From: Shouchella oshimensis
Lineage (GTDB): Bacteria; Bacillota; Bacilli; Bacillales; Bacillaceae_D
Direction of reading: 5' to 3'
DNA length: 24,000 nucleotides
Assembly (NCBI RefSeq): GCF_002019765.1
Contig: NZ_KV917380.1
Location: 2,866,792 to 2,890,791, forward strand
A program made the translations under genes and the position numbers. Shown one piece after another: positions 2 to 21,933 of this stretch (positions are counted from its first letter, which is position 1; every line of letters begins with the position of its first letter). A model generated the notes under the pieces. The model ran no database searches. It was not told where the DNA came from and saw only the letters and a list, made by a program, of their open reading frames with translations.

Positions 2-871
2 GTTGGTCAAAAATTAACACACTATTTAGTCGAACAAGGACATTCCGTCACTATTTTAACGCGAAATGCAGCAAATAAGCAAAACAAAGAACACGTTTCC
101 TATGTAGAATGGCTTCAGCCAGAGGCCACTCCTGCTGAGCATTTAGAAGGAACAGACGCATTTATTAATTTGGCAGGAGAATCAATCATGGGCAGGTGGA
201 CAGCATTAAAAAAAGAACGTATCCTCTCAAGCCGACTAGAAGCAACCACCGAACTCATTTCCATAATGAAACAACTGAAGAAAAAGCCCACTGTTTTAGT
301 TAATGGTTCAGCTATGGGCTACTATGGCTATTCTGATACAAAACAATTTACAGAAGAGGATGAGCCGGCGAACACACCTTTTCTTGGTGAGGTAACCCAA
401 AAGTGGGAAAATGCCGCATCCTTAGCCTCAGAATTTGGTATTCGAACAGTATATATGCGAATTGGCATTGTGTTCGATGAAGAAGGAGGCGCACTTCCGA
501 AAATGCTTCTCCCCTACAAACTTTTTGTCGGCGGGAAAGTAGGATCAGGAAAGCAATGGATGTCTTGGATTCATAGTAACGATTTAATTCGTTTATTCTT
601 ATTTGCTATTGAAAAAGAAGCGATCTCTGGTCCTTTAAATGCAACAGCCCCTCACCCGGTTCGCATGAATCAACTAAATCGAACCATTGCTCAAGTAATG
701 AATCGTCCCCATTGGCTGCCTGCACCGTCTTTTGCTTTAAAGACCACTCTTGGCGAAATGAGTACGCTTATCCTTGATGGAGCCTACATCTTTCCTCGTA
801 AAGCCATTCAACACGGTTTCACATTTCAGTACAACGAACTGGAAGTCGCACTCAAACAACTGTTAAACTAA
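2..871 (+). CDS. TIGR01777/YfhF-like NAD-dependent epimerase family protein with C-terminal DUF1731 region, 5'-truncated by the window edge
   Basis: The reading frame is open from base 2 (VGQKLTHYLVEQGHSVTILTR...), upstream of the ORF-track Met at 170. The C-terminal half (GKQWMSWIHSNDL...NATAPHPVRMNQL...RPHWLPAPSFALK..LGEMS) matches the conserved pattern of this family as I remember it. Confidence 0.85.
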   Translation, partial: VGQKLTHYLVEQGHSVTILTRNAANKQNKEHVSYVEWLQPEATPAEHLEGTDAFINLAGESIMGRWTALKKERILSSRLEATTELISIMKQLKKKPTVLVNGSAMGYYGYSDTKQFTEEDEPANTPFLGEVTQKWENAASLASEFGIRTVYMRIGIVFDEEGGALPKMLLPYKLFVGGKVGSGKQWMSWIHSNDLIRLFLFAIEKEAISGPLNATAPHPVRMNQLNRTIAQVMNRPHWLPAPSFALKTTLGEMSTLILDGAYIFPRKAIQHGFTFQYNELEVALKQLLN

Positions 872-879
872 TGACAAAA

Positions 880-911
880 CGCATGGTTTCAGTCAATCCT
901 GACACCATGCG
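880..911 (-). terminator. Hairpin between convergent genes, probable terminator of the 98-aa gene
   Basis: CGCATGGT(t)TCAG-tcaatc-CTGA(c)ACCATGCG gives about 12 bp with a 1x1 mismatch. On the minus strand it is followed by TTTTG. There is no good T-run on the plus strand. Confidence 0.5.
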
Positions 912-916
912 CTAGT

Positions 917-1213
917 TTAATGAAGCAGCACTTTCTCGAACTTTATACTTTGTTCCTCAATACCAAGCTTCTTTAAGAACTGCTCTGCTTGCCTTAACGT
1001 ATCAAGTGGATATTGAGTTTGACAAAGTTGTGTAGCTCTTCGAAGACTCTCTTGAAACTGCTTGTTTAATGCCAAGTCACGCTTTACATTATAAATTGCT
1101 TTTAAAACCTTTTCATCTCGCTCAAAGCTAACAAATCCCTCTGTTTGATTATAATATACAATAAGAGGTACGTGGGTATGGGGATGAATAATGTGTGTCT
1201 TGTATAACTGCAT
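917..1213 (-). CDS. Hypothetical 98-aa protein, no family recognised
   Basis: Intact ORF with GGAG..GAGGAG purine tract just upstream of the ATG and a hairpin after the stop. It sits downstream and co-oriented with the aimR/aimP-like pair. Confidence 0.55.
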   Translation of the reverse strand: MQLYKTHIIHPHTHVPLIVYYNQTEGFVSFERDEKVLKAIYNVKRDLALNKQFQESLRRATQLCQTQYPLDTLRQAEQFLKKLGIEEQSIKFEKVLLH

Positions 1214-1228
1214 GACTCCTCACACTCC

Positions 1229-1576
1229 GTGGACGTTTTTCTTTTATCTTATGTAACGATTGTACCACGGTTAAAACAAATGCCTAGTTCAAATAAATAT
1301 TGTTGTCCTCGCACTACTCCACTTTACCCCTTTACAATTAAAATGATTCCTACTTTTCATTCTTCTTGCTACACTGTAGTCATACGTACGATCATGCTTT
1401 TACTGCTTGCACTTGGACCAACCCTCACTATGCTTTCTGTAACAATTGAGCTAGAGTGGCTTGCACGTACCGTCAGAGTAATCGGGGGAATTCTGTTTAT
1501 GAACACCATCATTTTTTATCGAGAAATAAGAGCGTCCCTCCACAAAACTCTAGCAAAACGAAAAAAGACTCTCTGA
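1229..1576 (+). CDS. Doubtful ORF; if real, probably only the C-terminal ~60-77 aa forms a small 2-TM protein with a basic tail
   Basis: Two hydrophobic segments followed by REIRASLHKTLAKRKKTL. No recognisable SD precedes any candidate start (1229, 1343, 1394). The ORF ends inside the 1558-1585 hairpin. Confidence 0.25.
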   Translation: MDVFLLSYVTIVPRLKQMPSSNKYCCPRTTPLYPFTIKMIPTFHSSCYTVVIRTIMLLLLALGPTLTMLSVTIELEWLARTVRVIGGILFMNTIIFYREIRASLHKTLAKRKKTL

Positions 1577-1585
1577 GGAGTCTTT
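1558..1585 (-). terminator. Rho-independent terminator downstream of the aimP-like ORF
   Basis: AAAGACTC-n6-GAGTCTTT is an 8-bp stem. On the minus strand the stem runs into TTTTTTCG. It lies about 60 nt after the peptide ORF stop. Confidence 0.7.
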
Positions 1586-1591
1586 ATATTA

Positions 1592-1622
1592 TATATCGAA
1601 ATGTAGTTTCTTTATCTATATA
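1592..1622. promoter_or_regulatory. Imperfect inverted repeat between the aimP-like stop and the terminator, candidate operator
   Basis: TATATCGAAA-tgtagt-TTTATCTATATA, with one mismatch and one indel between the arms. In described arbitrium systems the AimR operator lies downstream of aimP. The region is AT-rich, so a chance match is possible. Confidence 0.25.
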
Positions 1623-1645
1623 GTTAGAATGGTTTCACAGTCCTA

Positions 1646-1768
1646 TTAAGTTCCGCCGGGTTGCGTCGGTCCGCCTTTTACTTCAACTAAATCAGGTGTA
1701 GTACCCGTTGTCAGTTGAGCAAACGGCGAACTTAGTAAAAATAACATCACAACGATGATACTTATCAT
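1646..1768 (-). CDS. aimP: Secreted signalling pro-peptide, AimP/Phr-like, 40 aa from the ATG (44 aa if initiated at ATA 1780)
   Basis: Found by manual translation; too short for the ORF track. Sequence: MISIIVVMLFLLSSPFAQLTTGTTPDLVEVKGGPTQPGGT, i.e. a hydrophobic signal-like N-terminus followed by a polar Gly/Pro tail. It starts 26 nt after the stop of the AimR-like gene on the same strand and is followed by a terminator. Confidence 0.6.
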   Translation of the reverse strand: MISIIVVMLFLLSSPFAQLTTGTTPDLVEVKGGPTQPGGT

Positions 1769-1794
1769 TACCTTTTTTATACGCCAACACCTCT

Positions 1795-2895
1795 TTAAAT
1801 TATACTATCTAGCTTTGTTGTGAAGAACGTTGCAAAGTAATTATTGCCACTTTGCTTCATTTCGCCGTAACCTTCAAACACATGATGTACATTTTTTGTA
1901 CATAAACCTAAATAGAGCTTACCAAAAGGACTTAGTTGACTTTGACTTTTAAGCAACCGTAGTGCCTTATTCACCTCCCCTCGAACGTAATGTTGATGAG
2001 CAACTTCTTCTTCATCTCCACAGCTTAAACAGCGATCATGAATGACATTGTTAATACTCAACACAAATGCTATATCTTGTTCCATCTGTTCATGTTTCTT
2101 TGAATTTGCTTTTTTATAACAAGCTTGAGCCATCTCCAAATAACGAATAGCCAAATCAACAGAATGACCTTGATAGGCATGTCCAAGTAAGTGATTCGCA
2201 CTAGCTACAATGAAATCCGAGGCTAGCGGGCTCTTAAGAATTTTATTCGCATTTTGTATTGCATCTTGAATATCCATGCGGTTATATAAACTATCATAAG
2301 CTCGTTGTAAATCATATTTAAGTAACAACGAATCTTTTAAAAACCCTTCTCGCAATACATGTACTTTTCGATCTGTTCTCGCAAGAAAATTGTTCATATC
2401 GTAAAAATTATGTTTGAATGTTAAAGTAGATTCAATTAACTCCAGCTTTAACAGCGCTTCTGGTATGGTCACTTTTCCAAATAAGCTTCGGCATCTCTCC
2501 CATGCCATTTCTGGAGTCAGTAAACCTTTATCCCGCTCAAACCGGTATATGTCTATCCATTCCTTTACTTCGCCTTTATGGTCTTGATGAACAGATAACA
2601 AATCATCAAGCAAATCTCTCCTGTTAAAATTCGAAGCATATTCGAGGGAACTTAAAATACCAATTGGCTTCGTTAACGTCCGACAGTAATCATCCATTAC
2701 ATCTAAGTAATCTTCTTCTTCAATATAGCGAATAATAGCAAAGGAATTAGAAAACTGCAGATCTTTCTGACCTTTTTTATCCACAAACATAGAAATGAGC
2801 GGCTTCGAAATTCCTGTTGCTTTTGAGATGTCTACTTGCTTATTCCCTTCTATACTTAGATAATCGCTAACAAGTTGATATAGATAATTAGACAA
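1795..2895 (-). CDS. aimR: AimR-family (RRNPP-type) HTH + TPR-like peptide-sensing transcription regulator
   Basis: N-terminal HTH (VDISKATGISKPLISMFV) followed by about 300 aa of helical repeat. The blocks DDYCRTLTKPIGILSSLEYA, FVLSINNV and EVAHQHYVRGE resemble phi3T/SPbeta AimR blocks (DYCLNL....SALEYA, CFLNNV, ELAMHYYLKG) as I recall them. Start re-set to TTG 2895, 8 nt after GAGGGG; the ORF-track GTG at 2916 has no SD. Confidence 0.75.
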   Translation of the reverse strand: MSNYLYQLVSDYLSIEGNKQVDISKATGISKPLISMFVDKKGQKDLQFSNSFAIIRYIEEEDYLDVMDDYCRTLTKPIGILSSLEYASNFNRRDLLDDLLSVHQDHKGEVKEWIDIYRFERDKGLLTPEMAWERCRSLFGKVTIPEALLKLELIESTLTFKHNFYDMNNFLARTDRKVHVLREGFLKDSLLLKYDLQRAYDSLYNRMDIQDAIQNANKILKSPLASDFIVASANHLLGHAYQGHSVDLAIRYLEMAQACYKKANSKKHEQMEQDIAFVLSINNVIHDRCLSCGDEEEVAHQHYVRGEVNKALRLLKSQSQLSPFGKLYLGLCTKNVHHVFEGYGEMKQSGNNYFATFFTTKLDSII

Positions 2896-3111
2896 GACAG
2901 ACGCCCCTCTCTTCACTACGGTGACGTAGGATGTGATTAATGTTTATTATATAGCAACAATAAAAATATTGCTGTCGAAAAATAAAAGAATTTCTACTTT
3001 TTTAGCGTTTTTCTCTAGCCTCTTCTTAAAAGGAACCAGTTTCCTTATGATGACCTATCCTTCTCTAATTAGCGATAATGAATAAAAGCCTCTCTAACTT
3101 ACGGTCATACA

Positions 3112-3190
3112 AATAAACCCTTAATGGTGCTACACCCCAAATGCTAGCTTGGCACTCTAACTTTTTAGGGGCAATACCAATAAGGGTTCT
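3112..3190 (-). terminator. Long multi-tier hairpin immediately after the SHOCT gene
   Basis: On the minus strand, the outer arms AACCCTTATTGG / CCATTAAGGGTT match 11 of 12. Inner pairings are CCCC(t)AAA / TTTGGGG and TGC/GCA around a GCTAGC centre. It is followed by TTTATTTG. Confidence 0.5.
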
Positions 3191-3192
3191 TT

Positions 3193-3963
3193 TTAACGTA
3201 AAAGCTCAAGTTTCTTTTTATGAAATTCTTCCTCTGTAATGATTCCATCGTCAAGTAATTCTTTAAATTTTTTAATTTCATCTGCTACTGAAAAAGCTGT
3301 TTCAGTAAGGGGCTTTTGATTATTCTCCCGATCACAAATAACCTGAAACGTCGATACACATTCTTGAGCTTGTTCAAATAAAGACCTATACACCATTTCA
3401 TCTCTTTTTGACTTAGCATTTTTCAAAAAATGTATGTAAACGACTGGATCATTTATATCATTCATCGTTACTTTAATTTGTAAACTATTACACACACCCC
3501 GGGTTCTACGCTTGCCAGTTAAACCTCCAGCCATTGTTCCGGTATGACTAAAATACCCTCCATTAATAGGTGCTCTCCCTTGGCCACCGCTTGCAATCGA
3601 TTCGCCATCATCCAGTAATTCAAAGTCGAGTATGTCCTCGTATCGATAAACGATTGAACGATTTCTTCTTCCAAGTATTTCTGACAATACCAACCATTTT
3701 TTTTGATGATCATCAAATTCTACTAGTGTTCCAATTTTCTTTGTCGCCTTAAAATGATCCAGTTCTGTTGAATTATTGCTAGTTTTCGCTATAGCTTCTC
3801 TGATTTCATCGGCAGTCGCTTTTGCAATAAATTTCTTTAAACTAGAACCAGCCTTTTTATAACAAGTAGGACAAACCCATTCTTTGTTAGCAATTCTATA
3901 ACGATGTAACCCTGCTTCACCATCGCAGACCGCACATATTGCTTTTAGATCAAAAAAACCCAT
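3193..3963 (-). CDS. Zinc-ribbon (DUF4428-like) protein with C-terminal SHOCT domain
   Basis: N-terminal CxxC...CxxC (CAVCDGE...CPTCYKK). The C-terminal SVADEIKKFKELLDDGIITEEEFHKKKLELL is a typical SHOCT motif. SD GGAAGGGTG precedes the ATG. Confidence 0.8.
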   Translation of the reverse strand: MGFFDLKAICAVCDGEAGLHRYRIANKEWVCPTCYKKAGSSLKKFIAKATADEIREAIAKTSNNSTELDHFKATKKIGTLVEFDDHQKKWLVLSEILGRRNRSIVYRYEDILDFELLDDGESIASGGQGRAPINGGYFSHTGTMAGGLTGKRRTRGVCNSLQIKVTMNDINDPVVYIHFLKNAKSKRDEMVYRSLFEQAQECVSTFQVICDRENNQKPLTETAFSVADEIKKFKELLDDGIITEEEFHKKKLELLR

Positions 3964-4063
3964 CCCATATCACCCTTCCGTTTACACTACACTGATATTA
4001 TATATAAGATGAATTAGACAATACAATAGAAATAGGTAAATTTATCTAGTATAAGAATGAATA

Positions 4064-4103
4064 AGCATATTGACTCCTTAGTGCACTAAGGAGTCAATAT
4101 GCT
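4064..4103. repeat. Perfect 40-nt palindrome, probable terminator or insulator hairpin
   Basis: AGCATATTGACTCCTTAGTG|CACTAAGGAGTCAATATGCT is a perfect 20+20 palindrome centred on GTGCAC. Its edge overlaps the TAG stop of the 429-aa gene. There is no clean U-run on either strand. Confidence 0.6.
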
Positions 4104-5391
4104 AGGCGTTAATCCAAGATGTCCATGTTCCACCAGTCTTTCTACGTTTTCTTAATCCAATGGAAGATTGTACAAATGGTGTAGCTATTTGCAAAGCATC
4201 ATTATTTAACTGATAGTGATCAATCATCCAGGCTGTTTGTCCGGCAGGAACATTCTTAGCGCCAGTTTGTCTGATCCAGTAGCGACCGTTCTCGCTTATT
4301 GCATTTGCATCTGTTAAAGCTTTGGATTGACTGTGGAATGTGCCTAGTGTCCCTTTTAAAGATGAAATCGTACCATCTGGTTGGACTCTAAAAACTGTTC
4401 GATCATTTTGATAATCGTACAAAGACAGAAATTCTTCTCGTAAATTCAGTTTCACTTTGCGGTTGTTCCCCTCCCACACTTCAATTCCTTGGGTTTTATA
4501 ACCCTCCACTCCTCGAAGTTGTATGAAGCCCCTGTTGTACTCATCAATTCGCTGTACCATAGACTCTACTTCTTGAAGGCGTTTAGAGATCCTGCCAACG
4601 TCAGATCCCAACGAGTGAAGATCTTGAGCCGAAACACCGTTCATTGGTTTTTGAATGTAAAAGAAATCAGGTACTTTTCTTTCCGTCATGCCATTATTAT
4701 CGATTGACCGATTAACCATGGCACCTCTCACTATGGTTTGAGCGCTTCCACCGCCATCCAGTGTAAAAGCAAAAGCAACCTTCTCCTGCAACATAATTTC
4801 TGCTGACTCATGGGAAGTGAAGCCCCTATCAAAATTCGTACGACCATCTACAGTCAAAATGACAATATCTCCAGTAGTCTTTTGACCAAAAATTTGTGCG
4901 GGCTGAGGATTTTGATTATGCTCATAGTCATCATAAACAGTCTGGGGAAGTTTAGCACCATTTTCTATTAAAGGGATAAACCCAGTAACTGCATTCGTAT
5001 AGCCCTCGTTCAAAATTGTGGTTGCTGTAGTATGAGGTCGAAATACTTTAAATAGATTGTTATCATTAAACGCAAGGATGTATCTAGCTTTATCTGTTCT
5101 TCTATCGGATAGAATCCTTCGATTAACAATATTGACTCCCGATAAAGTCATTTGAGTAGGGTGAAAAATACCTGCATTTAATGTAACTGTATTTGAGTTA
5201 CGTTGTGCAAATGACCTTGCAGTTTCACCTGTTTGTGCGTTATTAGCTAACCCATGCTTGAGAGTGACCCCTTCTGAAACTTCGATTGTAGTTATATAAT
5301 AAGTAGTACCGTTCTTTCTTCCTTCTCTAGTTGTAACACCACTATAAAAAGCTGAATTTTCAAGCTTGTTTTTACTGTTACTATCCTGCAT
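4102..5391 (-). CDS. Phage tail-fibre/receptor-binding-like protein: phosphodiester glycosidase (NAGPA/DUF2233-type) domain, coiled-coil and pyocin-knob-like C-terminus
   Basis: FAFTLDGGGSAQTIV carries the NAGPA hallmark DGGGS. No signal peptide. Coiled segment DVGRISKRLQEVESMVQRIDE. The C-terminus (ENGRYWIR...NVPAGQTAWMIDHY...LRKRRKTGGTWTSWINA) fits the knob-domain pattern G.Y...P..G.....RR...G.W..W. SD AAGGAGA lies 9 nt before the ATG. Confidence 0.8.
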   Translation of the reverse strand: MQDSNSKNKLENSAFYSGVTTREGRKNGTTYYITTIEVSEGVTLKHGLANNAQTGETARSFAQRNSNTVTLNAGIFHPTQMTLSGVNIVNRRILSDRRTDKARYILAFNDNNLFKVFRPHTTATTILNEGYTNAVTGFIPLIENGAKLPQTVYDDYEHNQNPQPAQIFGQKTTGDIVILTVDGRTNFDRGFTSHESAEIMLQEKVAFAFTLDGGGSAQTIVRGAMVNRSIDNNGMTERKVPDFFYIQKPMNGVSAQDLHSLGSDVGRISKRLQEVESMVQRIDEYNRGFIQLRGVEGYKTQGIEVWEGNNRKVKLNLREEFLSLYDYQNDRTVFRVQPDGTISSLKGTLGTFHSQSKALTDANAISENGRYWIRQTGAKNVPAGQTAWMIDHYQLNNDALQIATPFVQSSIGLRKRRKTGGTWTSWINA

Positions 5392-5814
5392 AGGTTTCCA
5401 TCTCCTTTTTACATTGTTTCACTATACATAGAGAAATAAAGCAACAATAATCAAAGGTCGTTCATCATTTTTCTTAGTTTATAAGGTTTTACCTATTTAT
5501 CTTGGTAGCTTCCATCTAATTTTGTATAGTTGTTCAATTAGGTTACATACATAAAAAGAGAACCACCTAAAAGGAAGTCCTCTTTATTGCTTTAGTATTG
5601 GAGAATCCCTTTGAAAAAGAAGTCTGCTTTCTTTTTGTTGTTGGGACAAAATCCAATTAGCACACTGTTATTTTAGTACTATTTAAACTATACGTCCTCG
5701 CAGTTGTTAACGTTCTTTCAAACCCGCATCAATTCTTGTGTGAAAAAATTCTTAGTTTTAGCACTCCTTATACGAGGTATGGATGGATATAACTTATTTT
5801 TAGGAGGATTAAAA

Positions 5815-6000
5815 ATGTTCGCTAATAAGTGTTTTAGGAATGCCCTAGCAGTAGGTTTTGCAGTAGCCATTTTTTTAATGATTGTCTCAAGACTTAATAC
5901 ACAATCAGTCCTCGGAATTATAGTCATTTCAACAGTCGTTTATTTCATTTGTTATGTTACATCACGTGAAAAAAACCGTACTGTTTTTAATAAAGAGTAG
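5815..6000 (+). CDS. Small 61-aa two-TM membrane protein with basic C-terminal tail
   Basis: Start re-set to ATG 5815, 7 nt after AGGAGG; the ORF-track start at 5704 has no SD. Two hydrophobic helices, then SREKNRTVFNKE. A hairpin (GTTAAGGG...CCCTTAAC) follows the stop. Confidence 0.65.
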   Translation: MFANKCFRNALAVGFAVAIFLMIVSRLNTQSVLGIIVISTVVYFICYVTSREKNRTVFNKE

Positions 6001-6250
6001 CGTTAAGGGAGGGGTTTAACCTACTCCCCTTAACTGCTTATTCTAATATTTTAACGTCCTTAAGTGTACGAATGAATAATCATTTATTTGAGGTTATCTT
6101 TTACCTCTACATACTGCTTTCTCATTCATTTCGGTGACTATTCAATCGTAGAGAACTGGTTCATTCATTTAGTTATTGCAGCTGGATTAACCGTTGATCT
6201 ATGTGCTTTTCCTTTACTGTTTAAAAAAAGAAAAACATAGGAGGTACGCC

Positions 6251-6451
6251 ATGTATCGATTTAACAAATGGATTGACTCTTTTCTATTAGCTCTCGTGTG
6301 CGGTAGTGTTTACTTAACATTGAGCATAATTCACGATGATCAGGTTAAATGGCTAAATGCTTTAATAATTGCCACCTCTCTATTTCTTACATGGGCATTA
6401 GTCTTTCCTCGCCTTCGCGAAACAAGAAGTAAAACCAATACCAAAAAATAA
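6251..6451 (+). CDS. Small 66-aa two-TM membrane protein with basic C-terminal tail
   Basis: Start re-set to ATG 6251, 6 nt after AGGAGG. Two hydrophobic helices, then PRLRETRSKTNTKK. Same architecture as the 5815-6000 product. Confidence 0.65.
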   Translation: MYRFNKWIDSFLLALVCGSVYLTLSIIHDDQVKWLNALIIATSLFLTWALVFPRLRETRSKTNTKK

Positions 6452-6570
6452 GAGTAGCTCTAAGATGGGGACAATGACTAGAAATTCTTGTTTAGCAAAA
6501 TCCTACCTTATAAAGATCTTCACGGGAAAACTCATTGTGGTTAAAATGTGGTCAATCGTTATTAGAATAG

Positions 6571-6596
6571 AGAAAAAACCCTGTATTTACAGGGTT
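6571..6596 (-). terminator. Rho-independent terminator of rlmD, overlapping its stop codon
   Basis: Minus strand reads AACCCTGT-aaat-ACAGGGTT followed by TTTTCTC, giving an effective T6 run. Confidence 0.8.
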
Positions 6597-20169: not shown

Positions 20170-21933
20170 TTAAAATTTGCGAATATCCTCTAACACTACA
20201 TCAATAGCCTCTTGCCAGAAGTCAGGTTTTGTTAAGTCTACATTCAAATGTTTCTCTGCTAATGCTTCAACACTCATACTGCCGCTATCTTGGAGCAAGG
20301 AGATATACGCACTTTCAAAGGATGTTTCAGACTTTAAAGCGCGCGCATAGATTCCCATACTAAACAAATATCCGAATGTATATGGGAAGTTATAAAATGG
20401 CTGCCCAGTAATGTGGAAGTGTAGTTTTGATGCCCAAAAATAAGGATCGTAAGAAGATAATTTATCACCATATGCCTCTTTTTGAGCATCTACCATTAGC
20501 TCATTCAAACGCTCTGTTGGTACCATACCGTTTTTACGCTCTTCATAGAACCGTGTCTCAAATAAGAACCGCGAATGAATATTCATAAAGAAAGCAAGAG
20601 AACGGGACAGTTTATTTTCTAGCAACATCTTTTTTACATCTGAGCTCTCGGCTTCGTCAACAAGAGCGTCTGCTACAATCATTTCTGCAAACGTTGAAGC
20701 TGTCTCGGCAATACTCATCGGATATTGCTTTTGTGATTGTACGTCATTGTCTTTTAAACACCAGCTGTGATAAGCATGTCCTAATTCATGGGCAAGGGTA
20801 GCAACATTCGACATCGATCCGTCATACGTCATGAAAATACGTGTTTCTTTATTCATTGGGAAGTTCGTACAAAAGCCTCCTGGACGCTTTCCAGAACGAT
20901 TTTCTGCTTCTACCCAACCTTCACGCAGTGCCATTTCTGCGAACTCAGCCATTTTTGGACTAAACCGGTTGAAATGTTTAATAATTAAGTGACACGCTTC
21001 TTCATATGGAATGGTATTTTTTGACGCATCTTCGAGTGGAAGTGGCGCACCTACATCATGAATCGATAACTGATCCACACCGAGTAATGTTGCTTTTTTA
21101 TCCATGTACGCATAGAATTCAGGTTTATTTTTTGTAATGGTCGCCCACATTGTATTTAAAGTGTCTTCCGTCATACCGTTAAGCTCTAGTGGTTCTTTTA
21201 AAACATTTTCCCACCCACGCTCTTCATAAAGCTTTAAGCGAAAGCCCGCTAAACGGTTTAACGTCTGCGTAAACAATGGTGCCTGCTCTTCCCAAGCATG
21301 TAAAGCAGCCTCTGATGCTCGTTCTCGAACTTGTCGGTCTGTACTTCCTAAGCGATTATGTAGTTGACCTGCTGACAACATCTTTGTTTCCCCATCTTCT
21401 TCAAACGGGATAACCATTCGTCCGACAGCTTCATTGTAAACGGAACCCCATGCATGGTAGCCATCTTTAGCCAGTTTTGTGGCTAATTCTTCTTTTTCTG
21501 TATTCATTTTATCTAAAGCGTGTGAACGTGTTTTCTTTAAAAGATAAGCAGACGGCTTCACTTGCTCATTTGTAAGCAGTTGATTGAATGCGTCATCTGA
21601 CATACTTCGCAATTCTTCCTCTAAAAATAAATAAAGCTTTTGCGCTTTCACTTTTTGTTCTTGAACGTTTTCTGCTAGAAGCAATGCCTGTTTATCATTT
21701 ACATCTTGAGCAGCTAAGCATGAAACAAATGCAGCCGTTTGCCAAAGTCTTGGGCTAATTGATTCTATAGCTTGGACTAGTGCTTCCACCTCAACAGACG
21801 ATTGATCTACCCATTGATCTAATTGCTTGTTTGTTTCGTTGAAGAATTCTGTGAATTCATTTGAATCGCTTCCGCCTTCAAAAATTGAATGTAGATCCCA
21901 CGTAATTGGAAAGTGAACAGTTTCTTTCATCAT
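20170..21933 (-). CDS. M3 family oligoendopeptidase (PepF-like zinc metallopeptidase)
   Basis: HELGHAYH is an HExxH zinc motif, with a downstream E (IAETASTFAE). The 587-aa length is typical of the pepF/M3 subfamily. The start is probably the second ATG (21930) given SD spacing. Confidence 0.9.
   Translation of the reverse strand: MMKETVHFPITWDLHSIFEGGSDSNEFTEFFNETNKQLDQWVDQSSVEVEALVQAIESISPRLWQTAAFVSCLAAQDVNDKQALLLAENVQEQKVKAQKLYLFLEEELRSMSDDAFNQLLTNEQVKPSAYLLKKTRSHALDKMNTEKEELATKLAKDGYHAWGSVYNEAVGRMVIPFEEDGETKMLSAGQLHNRLGSTDRQVRERASEAALHAWEEQAPLFTQTLNRLAGFRLKLYEERGWENVLKEPLELNGMTEDTLNTMWATITKNKPEFYAYMDKKATLLGVDQLSIHDVGAPLPLEDASKNTIPYEEACHLIIKHFNRFSPKMAEFAEMALREGWVEAENRSGKRPGGFCTNFPMNKETRIFMTYDGSMSNVATLAHELGHAYHSWCLKDNDVQSQKQYPMSIAETASTFAEMIVADALVDEAESSDVKKMLLENKLSRSLAFFMNIHSRFLFETRFYEERKNGMVPTERLNELMVDAQKEAYGDKLSSYDPYFWASKLHFHITGQPFYNFPYTFGYLFSMGIYARALKSETSFESAYISLLQDSGSMSVEALAEKHLNVDLTKPDFWQEAIDVVLEDIRKF

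Follow-up and report, generated by a model that had tools for sequence, protein, structure and literature searches.

We analysed 24,000 nt of Shouchella oshimensis DNA (assembly GCF_002019765.1, contig NZ_KV917380.1, positions 2,866,792 to 2,890,791), here called the window, in which a small open reading frame (ORF) directly follows the gene of an arbitrium receptor, AimR. This small ORF (1646..1780, minus strand) is likely a genuine aimP-type propeptide gene and the partner of the adjacent receptor; judging from sequence comparison and from analogy with known arbitrium systems, its translation would most probably start at an ATA codon, and its product would be exported and bound by AimR. It is already known that the receptor is annotated as AimR and that a propeptide gene is to be expected downstream of it. 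The locus is nevertheless moderately interesting, as it combines a GP-x-x-P signal class that is usually duplicated, an ATA at the start position, and a constrained receptor left in a prophage remnant from which the output arm is missing.

The AimR receptor and the conserved small gene behind it

The receptor gene aimR (1795..2895, minus strand) encodes 366 aa from TTG 2895, as in RefSeq, or 373 aa if opened at GTG 2916. Its product scored 76 bits against the Pfam AimR family (PF22871; cut-off 26.7) and 140.7 bits against the NCBIfam equivalog lysogeny_AimR (NF038310; cut-off 70), and also matched phrog_1728; no Rap family was among the Pfam and NCBIfam matches. RefSeq names it 'AimR family lysis-lysogeny pheromone receptor' (WP_055735123.1 and others). 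A sequence-profile search of the PDB with the receptor returned nothing at E <= 0.01. An AlphaFold (AF2) model from 11 relatives was all-helical, with a predicted local distance difference test score (pLDDT) of 86 and a predicted template modelling score (pTM) of 0.81. The top 16 PDB fold matches of this model were solved AimR structures (from the SPbeta, phi3T, Katmira33 and ATCC13952 phages), with template modelling (TM) scores of 0.64-0.79, mostly about 0.75, and E values down to 2e-9, and the best Rap structure reached TM 0.38 (E 1e-3). The kinship to the solved AimR structures is visible at the fold level only, the identity being 14-21%. By Pfam, NCBIfam and predicted fold, the product of the neighbouring gene is an AimR receptor. 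Upstream of aimR, an imperfect inverted repeat of 20 nt at 2943..2986 (TTTATTATATAGCAACAATA / TATTGCTGTCGAAAAATAAA) overlaps the likely -10 region and could be a candidate regulatory site for aimR expression.

The small ORF comprises 44 codons from ATA 1780, or 40 from ATG 1768, plus a stop; the ATG-initiated version (1646..1768, minus strand) gives MISIIVVMLFLLSSPFAQLTTGTTPDLVEVKGGPTQPGGT. The aimR stop TAA is at 1797-1795, with 26 nt from there to ATG 1768, and the minus strand reads ...GATAGTATAATT TAA AGAGGTG TTGGCGT ATA AAA AAG GTA ATG ATA AGT... The Shine-Dalgarno (SD) sequence AGAGGTG (1788..1794, minus strand), identified by direct reading, is separated from the in-frame ATA by a 7-nt spacer (1787-1781). 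Direct reading and an ORF finder reproduced the coordinates, SD, spacer and in-frame ATA given in the original prediction, which had also remarked that the ORF was missing from the ORF track; this is explained by the length threshold, with a default cut-off of 60 aa. The 40-aa product is already in RefSeq as a 'hypothetical protein' (WP_269083154.1), and most of the assemblies examined leave the gene uncalled. The small ORF overlaps neither an Rfam family nor a tRNA nor a competing long ORF, and no stable RNA fold was found around either start (z 0.62). Since the first 6 kb contain 57 ORFs of 25 aa or more, the small ORF by itself is no better than chance, and we judge it to be real because it is conserved across homologous loci.

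By inspection and propeptide alignment, the product would open with a signal sequence, (M/I)KKVMISIIVVMLFLLSSPFA (1718..1780, minus strand), with a Lys-Lys n-region and a 13-residue hydrophobic core; the Lys-Lys is present in the window product only if translation begins at ATA 1780. Candidate cleavage sites, again by inspection, follow LLS or PFA. The C-terminal end carries a single copy of the signal unit GGPTQPGGT (1649..1675, minus strand), in which G-P-x-x-P is invariant in the family and the third codon positions are free. Among orthologs the core of the unit is constant, with variation only in the last residue (T or S).

Relatives were drawn from a protein database and IMG/VR, and the DNA around them was compared. 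Genome-contig scans with the receptor, and then with the receptor alignment, gave no confirmed relative, and one metagenome scan for receptor relatives found none. The close receptor relatives form ten 90%-identity clusters in all, every named one from Shouchella, while a wider full-database profile search gave about 405 AimR-like representatives; here too the nearest came from alkaliphilic Bacillaceae. The nearer prophage-borne receptor relatives are 34-51% identical. In every locus with sequence continuing beyond aimR, a small ORF lies -4 to +14 nt past it, and the 13 distinct propeptides recovered are encoded mostly on prophages of Shouchella and of other alkaliphilic Bacillaceae. All 13 share a common design, namely M-K-K, a hydrophobic stretch and then GP[T/S/N]xP... 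units at the C-terminal end. Examples, each running to its stop codon and named by locus, are (TTG)KKLLLSIVAVTILVSGSVTLTEVAGPTQPGTGTAPTSTPLSGPTQPGTGT in L001, MKKVLSFIVAVVVAGVITTSSFDHLSGPNQPGTGSGPSLAPSHEKTSGPNQPGTGS in L004, ...LAGGPTQPGAGAVTSETFGGPSQPGA in L008, ...VSGPTLPGTGPASTDSELQRGPTLPGT in L022, ...KPFGPTDPDVT in L021, ...IEAGPTNPPVDRPSSVNGPTNPPVDK in L026 and ...DEAGPTNPIGTDKQSQQLQSPKGPTKPIGTD in L027. The only invariant positions in the alignment of the 13 propeptides are M1, K2 and the G-P-x-x-P of the last unit, with K3 at 90%. The unit is doubled in 9 of the 13, compared with one in the window copy, and in several two-copy propeptides the first unit starts, by inspection, just after ...A or ...AG resembling a signal-peptidase site. 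Intragenic duplication of the signal region has been reported for RRNPP propeptides (supplement of PMC10075063, legend of Fig. S1).

Across 13 copies of the GPTQPG core, the codons vary at the third position in 6 of 6 cases, at the second in 1 of 6 (the T/N/S codon) and at the first in 0 of 6. The original prediction had tied its fate to a conserved small ORF at homologous loci and to codon-position bias in its substitutions; the ORF is present wherever downstream sequence exists, and the variation does fall on third positions. Its proposal of an AimP/Phr layout beside a receptor likewise agrees with the AimR identity of the receptor and with an ORF conserved in position and design. Furthermore, the peptide motif tracks receptor identity qualitatively across about 13 pairs, with QPG at 46-51%, LPG at 43%, DPD at 34% and NP/HP further out. 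A scan of IMG/VR DNA for the GGPTQPG motif gave 83 hits, which were rejected as chance occurrences in GC-rich contigs, all lacking both the signal-peptide layout and an AimR neighbour.

Start codon and mature signal

Among the relatives, the start codon is ATG in L004 and L010 and TTG in L001, L008, L011 and L012, located 5-9 nt past GGAGGTG or GGGGGTG, which the AGAGGTG of the window matches. The ATA of the window (1778..1780, minus strand) aligns codon for codon with these ATG/TTG starts and would prepend I/M-K-K-V in frame, the next codons, AAA AAG GTA (K-K-V), being as in L012. All eight orthologous loci carry the same ATA, the same SD and the same first 29 codons. A canonical aimP start codon is absent at the homologous position, and the nearest ATG is 4 codons further downstream. 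From the SD core AGAGG, the distance is 9 nt to the ATA and 21 nt to ATG 1768; 9 nt is the usual spacing in Bacillus, and AUA is a rare start listed in translation table 11. In Staphylococcus aureus, which also belongs to the Bacillales, the AUA starts of infC, ccpN and citZ were verified by ribosome profiling and reporters, with an output of about 10-30% of that of AUG and always with an extended SD (PMC13009471). In Escherichia coli, the output of AUA is 1-2% of that of AUG (bioRxiv 10.1101/063800). We favour the ATA because it holds the homologous start position, has the appropriate SD spacing and retains Lys-Lys, and we would place the probability that translation begins at ATA 1780 rather than at ATG 1768 a little above one half. 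The possible ATA initiation raised in the original prediction thus gains from the alignment with the relatives' starts behind an SD and from the invariance across eight loci; use of this codon, to give a 44-aa MKKV... product, is plausible from the sequence.

If the same gene started at ATG 1768, as annotated in RefSeq, the product would be 40 aa long without Lys-Lys and the ATA would be a dead former start, which we consider possible but doubtful. Translational coupling lets terminating ribosomes re-initiate without an SD, and the geometry read from the sequence, with the aimR stop 26 nt upstream, would permit such re-initiation at ATG 1768. ATG is also a canonical start codon, and this one was chosen by the NCBI annotation pipeline (PGAP), and ATA is a poor initiator (bioRxiv 10.1101/063800). 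However, the poor SD spacing of the ATG that the original prediction pointed out is real: in addition to the 21 nt from the SD core, the sole local purine run, AAGGT, stops 1 nt before the ATG, which also lies within a weak predicted hairpin. The homologous start position is held by the ATA and not by the ATG, and the ATG product is without the K-K that is invariant or nearly so in all 13 relatives. Bacillus Sec signal peptides normally need a Lys-Lys n-region.

With the ATA as the most probable start, the gene pair would work by a mechanism inferred from the arbitrium family, in which production, export and binding of the peptide are predicted steps. aimR and aimP would be co-transcribed to a terminator at 1585-1564, and initiation at ATA 1780 would proceed with reduced efficiency to give a 44-aa pre-propeptide; ribosomes may instead begin, partly or wholly, at ATG 1768. 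Sec export followed by cleavage by signal peptidase and extracellular proteases would then release a Pro/Gly-rich peptide of about 7-9 residues from the conserved Gly-Pro, which would be re-imported by Opp and bind to AimR. Signal output is expected to be below that of the relatives, whichever start serves. A Pro/Gly-rich signal of this kind might withstand the alkaline proteases that these bacteria produce in abundance.

The choice of Gly-Pro as the mature N-terminus is made because a penultimate proline shields peptides from aminopeptidases. The residues after GP-x-x-P-G are none, A, T, GT, GS, TGT, TGS or AGA depending on the locus, and the last six residues are out of register between loci because of this variable tail; a mature signal of 7-9 residues starting at Gly-Pro is therefore a guess and a candidate only. 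The C-terminus of the window product, ...GGPTQPGGT, is neither an RGA-ending hexapeptide nor one with G-A or G-G at positions 5-6. Among SPbeta-type (clade 2) peptides, 74% end in RGA (PMC13220667). The original prediction was right that this C-terminus is unlike the xxxxGA/RGA type of SPbeta, and GP[T/S/N]xP... proved to be the signature of the whole clade. Its suggestion of a new specificity class holds in that the signal is non-RGA and has its own GP-x-x-P core, and the word 'new' has to be tempered, since clade-specific peptides are already published: 9-10 AimR clades have been described, which differ from one another in the profile and size of their peptides (PMC6669507, PMC13220667), and other non-RGA signals include EIKPGG in Wbeta (PMC8878798) and ...MADPGGSVG in B83 (PMC6669507). 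Our literature search, whose reach did not extend to the Stokar-Avihail 2019 clade survey, found no paper that joins arbitrium or AimR with Shouchella or clausii, nor the PTQPG motif in an arbitrium context.

These observations document a Gly-Pro-x-x-Pro peptide class for an experimentally unstudied clade and yield candidates for synthetic peptides as well as a candidate operator. The propeptide partner is annotated as a 'hypothetical protein' with a start that is probably wrong, and an MKK...GP-x-x-P profile would permit systematic annotation in alkaliphilic Bacillaceae.

Selection, the downstream region and rival readings

Between the window and an S. miscanthi-type lineage, aimR differs by 76 synonymous and 17 non-synonymous changes (proportion of synonymous sites changed, pS, 0.34; proportion of non-synonymous sites changed, pN, 0.019; ratio 0.06), and on these counts aimR is clearly maintained under strong constraint. 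In the same two lineages, aimP differs by 2-3 synonymous and 4 non-synonymous changes (T>I, D>E, V>I and T>S), all four outside the GGPTQPGG core. Nucleotide-level constraint on aimP, considered in view of its pS of 0.06 compared with 0.34 for aimR, was rejected, as the whole genomic island around the pair is 93-100% identical and an invariant run of 118 nt is not unusual there. The selection data are compatible with both a weakly expressed functional signal gene and a slowly decaying one and do not distinguish between them.

The transcript of aimR and aimP is predicted to end at an intrinsic terminator (1564..1585, minus strand) found by a terminator scan and by direct reading, which works in both directions and also serves a convergent small gene. 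In at least seven prophage loci, aimP is followed in order by a terminator hairpin, a long palindrome and a small gene (L001, 7263-7571; L004, 7285-7595; L008; L010, 1841-2159; L011, 3549-3807; L022, 1738-2093; L026, about 3740-3800). The palindrome is ACACATATGCATAGGAA-N10-TTCCTATTTATATGTGT in L022 and more diverged in L008 and L011. In L001, L004, L008, L010 and L011, the small gene encodes a conserved protein of 52-59 aa (M..S.FW[DN][IF]E..GE[IL]IVH...SP...) for which no family match was found; that of L022 differs and is a 67-aa ORF. The palindrome and the 52-59 aa gene of the relatives are candidates for the AimR operator and the aimX-equivalent of the clade. In the window, a tblastn search gave no match to the 52-59 aa protein at E < 1, and a regular-expression search of the 24 kb found no intact palindrome. 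Local alignment identified a 32-nt segment at 1591..1622 (no strand assigned) that corresponds to the palindrome's centre and right arm and agrees with L010 at 18 of 20 positions with a 2-nt gap and with L026 at 26 of 31. Its score of 29 was the highest of any segment in the window, compared with 17.6 +/- 2.6 in shuffled sequences, of which 1 in 1000 scored as high. From its sequence, this segment is a probable degraded operator remnant, and only probable because a chance 14-mer elsewhere in the window scores 28.

Several points weigh against a working aimP-type gene. Four non-synonymous changes in aimP compared with 2-3 synonymous ones are too few to prove constraint, the ORF could have remained open by chance over so little divergence, and the invariant 118-nt run around the start is unremarkable at the approximately 95% identity of the island. 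In addition, both starts are poor, the ATA as a weak initiator and the ATG for want of a usable SD, and the size and termini of the mature peptide are guessed, the tails differing between loci.

It is possible, though we regard it as rather unlikely, that the propeptide gene is a decaying relic without a working signal, with AimR retained for some other purpose, for example to sense the peptides of related prophages or to act peptide-free. The start codon replaced by ATA, the degraded operator, the missing gene at the aimX position, the lack of a surrounding prophage and the ratio of amino-acid to silent changes in aimP would all fit such decay, as would the single signal unit compared with two in 9 of 13, the linker 'TTGTTP' aligning with the tail of a lost first unit. 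Moreover, S. miscanthi has this copy together with a prophage-type copy that carries GPTQPGTGT twice. Nevertheless, all eight orthologous loci retain an intact ORF, SD and GGPTQPGG core, and the two lineages that they represent have diverged in aimR at 34% of synonymous sites; the four amino-acid changes in aimP are outside the core or conservative; and a receptor with a pN/pS of 0.06 usually implies a ligand.

A further reading, which we hold to be improbable, is that the chromosomally fixed remnant is a domesticated host module whose AimR senses or disrupts the GPTQPG-type signals that related Shouchella prophages produce. If this were true, the ATA start and the single unit would be ways of deliberately weakening the signal that the module itself makes, and either the host or the remnant could tip incoming or resident phages towards lysis or lysogeny. 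A constrained receptor with a weakened signal gene and a lost output arm offers a natural test case for arbitrium cross-talk or eavesdropping, which has recently been shown for SPbeta-type phages (PMC13220667). Finally, a chance ORF, or a Phr-type peptide of a Rap receptor instead of an arbitrium peptide, is refuted: short ORFs are common in this DNA and many Rap-Phr pairs occur in Shouchella genomes (supplement of PMC10075063), but the relatives share the position, the design and the motif, with variation at third codon positions, and the receptor is by all of its 16 best fold matches AimR and not Rap.

Comparison with known systems and genomic setting

The aimR-aimP pair of the window resembles the SPbeta/phi3T arbitrium system (clade 2) in the AimR fold (TM about 0.75 to 6HP3, 5ZVV and 6S7I), in an aimP directly downstream on the same strand, and in a propeptide made of MKK, a hydrophobic segment and a C-terminal signal. 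It differs in the low identity (14-21%) of the window AimR to the solved AimR proteins, in GGPTQPGGT compared with xxRGA, with a conserved unit of the clade longer than 6 residues, and in the lack of aimX or an intact operator downstream, the location off a phage and the ATA at the start position. The Wbeta and B83 (vB_BtS_B83, clade 7) systems of the Bacillus cereus group also have non-RGA peptides, with Pro-Gly-Gly (PMC8878798, PMC6669507), and like the prophage relatives L008, L011 and L021 they are placed beside a CI/Cro/integrase region; unlike them, the clade described here has the GP-x-x-P core, a usually duplicated unit and alkaliphilic Shouchella/Alkalihalobacillus hosts. Among annotated phages, an AimR match was detectable in B83 alone, at 23.5% identity to the B83 AimR.

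The closest comparison is with the prophage-borne pairs of alkaliphilic Bacillaceae (L001/L013, L004/L014, L008, L010, L011, L022, L021 and L024-L027), which share the receptor clade, the SD and start position, the MKK signal sequence and the GP[T/S/N]xP unit. In contrast to the window copy, they carry two units in 9 of 11 cases, use ATG or TTG starts and are located in prophages. Rap-Phr and other RRNPP systems with multi-peptide propeptides likewise have a secreted propeptide beside a tetratricopeptide-repeat (TPR) receptor and known intragenic signal duplication, whereas the receptor here has a helix-turn-helix (HTH) domain and the AimR fold, and the window copy has a single unit. 'Cluster_21 (Alkalihalobacillus)' of the RRNPP_detector supplement was rejected as an AimR relative, as it is placed with Rap in the text of the figure. 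For S. lehensis G1, the ortholog AIC93797 was not found among the RRNPP_detector table rows listed.

The aimR-aimP pair lies in a prophage remnant of approximately 5 kb at a fixed site between rlmCD and a yfhF-like epimerase gene and recX. The gene order is rlmCD, small ORFs, a NAGPA protein, a DUF4428/SHOCT protein, aimR, aimP, a convergent 67-aa gene, a 98-aa gene, the epimerase gene and recX, and the same site is occupied in at least five genomes, including S. lehensis G1 (CP003923), S. miscanthi (CP042163), LT899437 and JCM 19047. The remainder of the window is core chromosome with no prophage around the island. The pair is not on a temperate phage, prophage or other mobile element, though the island holds phage-derived genes. 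One of these encodes the DUF4428/SHOCT protein (3193-3963, minus strand; phrog_888, E 2e-67; Pfam domains) and another the NAGPA-domain protein (4102-5391, minus strand; Pfam), which matches positions 340-772 of the 1115-position profile phrog_14029 (E 8e-107) and probably represents a piece of a larger phage protein. Among orthologous loci the NAGPA protein is 429, 431 or 459 aa long and its neighbours vary, DUF4428 being lost in S. miscanthi. The relatives are in prophages with integrase, CI/Cro, endolysin, lysis or replication genes, or on 50-kb IMG/VR prophage contigs.

Two AimR-AimP pairs are present in S. miscanthi (CP042163.1), L001 at 3.28 Mb and L017 at 1.45 Mb. One is the chromosomal remnant (GGPTQPGGS); the other, with a receptor 51% identical and GPTQPGTGT twice, sits in an element with FtsK/SpoIIIE and integrase fragments. 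A host with two such pairs is a natural setting for cross-talk.

The island (871..6587) is 93-100% identical between two Shouchella lineages, compared with 83-89% for the flanking core genes, which suggests recent exchange by recombination or unusual constraint. Compared with seven other orthologous loci, the window has a private 37-nt deletion at approximately 1385/1386, which takes out the start (MNTK...) and the upstream region of the conserved convergent 67-aa hydrophobic ORF (MNTKRTIMLLLLALGPTLTMLSV...KRKKTL); an internal ATG is left (ORF 1229..1576, plus strand). A PepF-type oligoendopeptidase gene (Peptidase_M3; 20170..21933, minus strand) lies 18 kb off; in B. subtilis, overproduced PepF disturbs signalling by Phr peptides, but its presence here is probably a coincidence. 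Beside the island and on the aimR strand, a 98-aa ORF (917..1213, minus strand) had no Pfam, NCBIfam or PHROG match, and we take it to be real and very strongly constrained because the two Shouchella lineages differ in it by 17 synonymous changes and not a single non-synonymous one.

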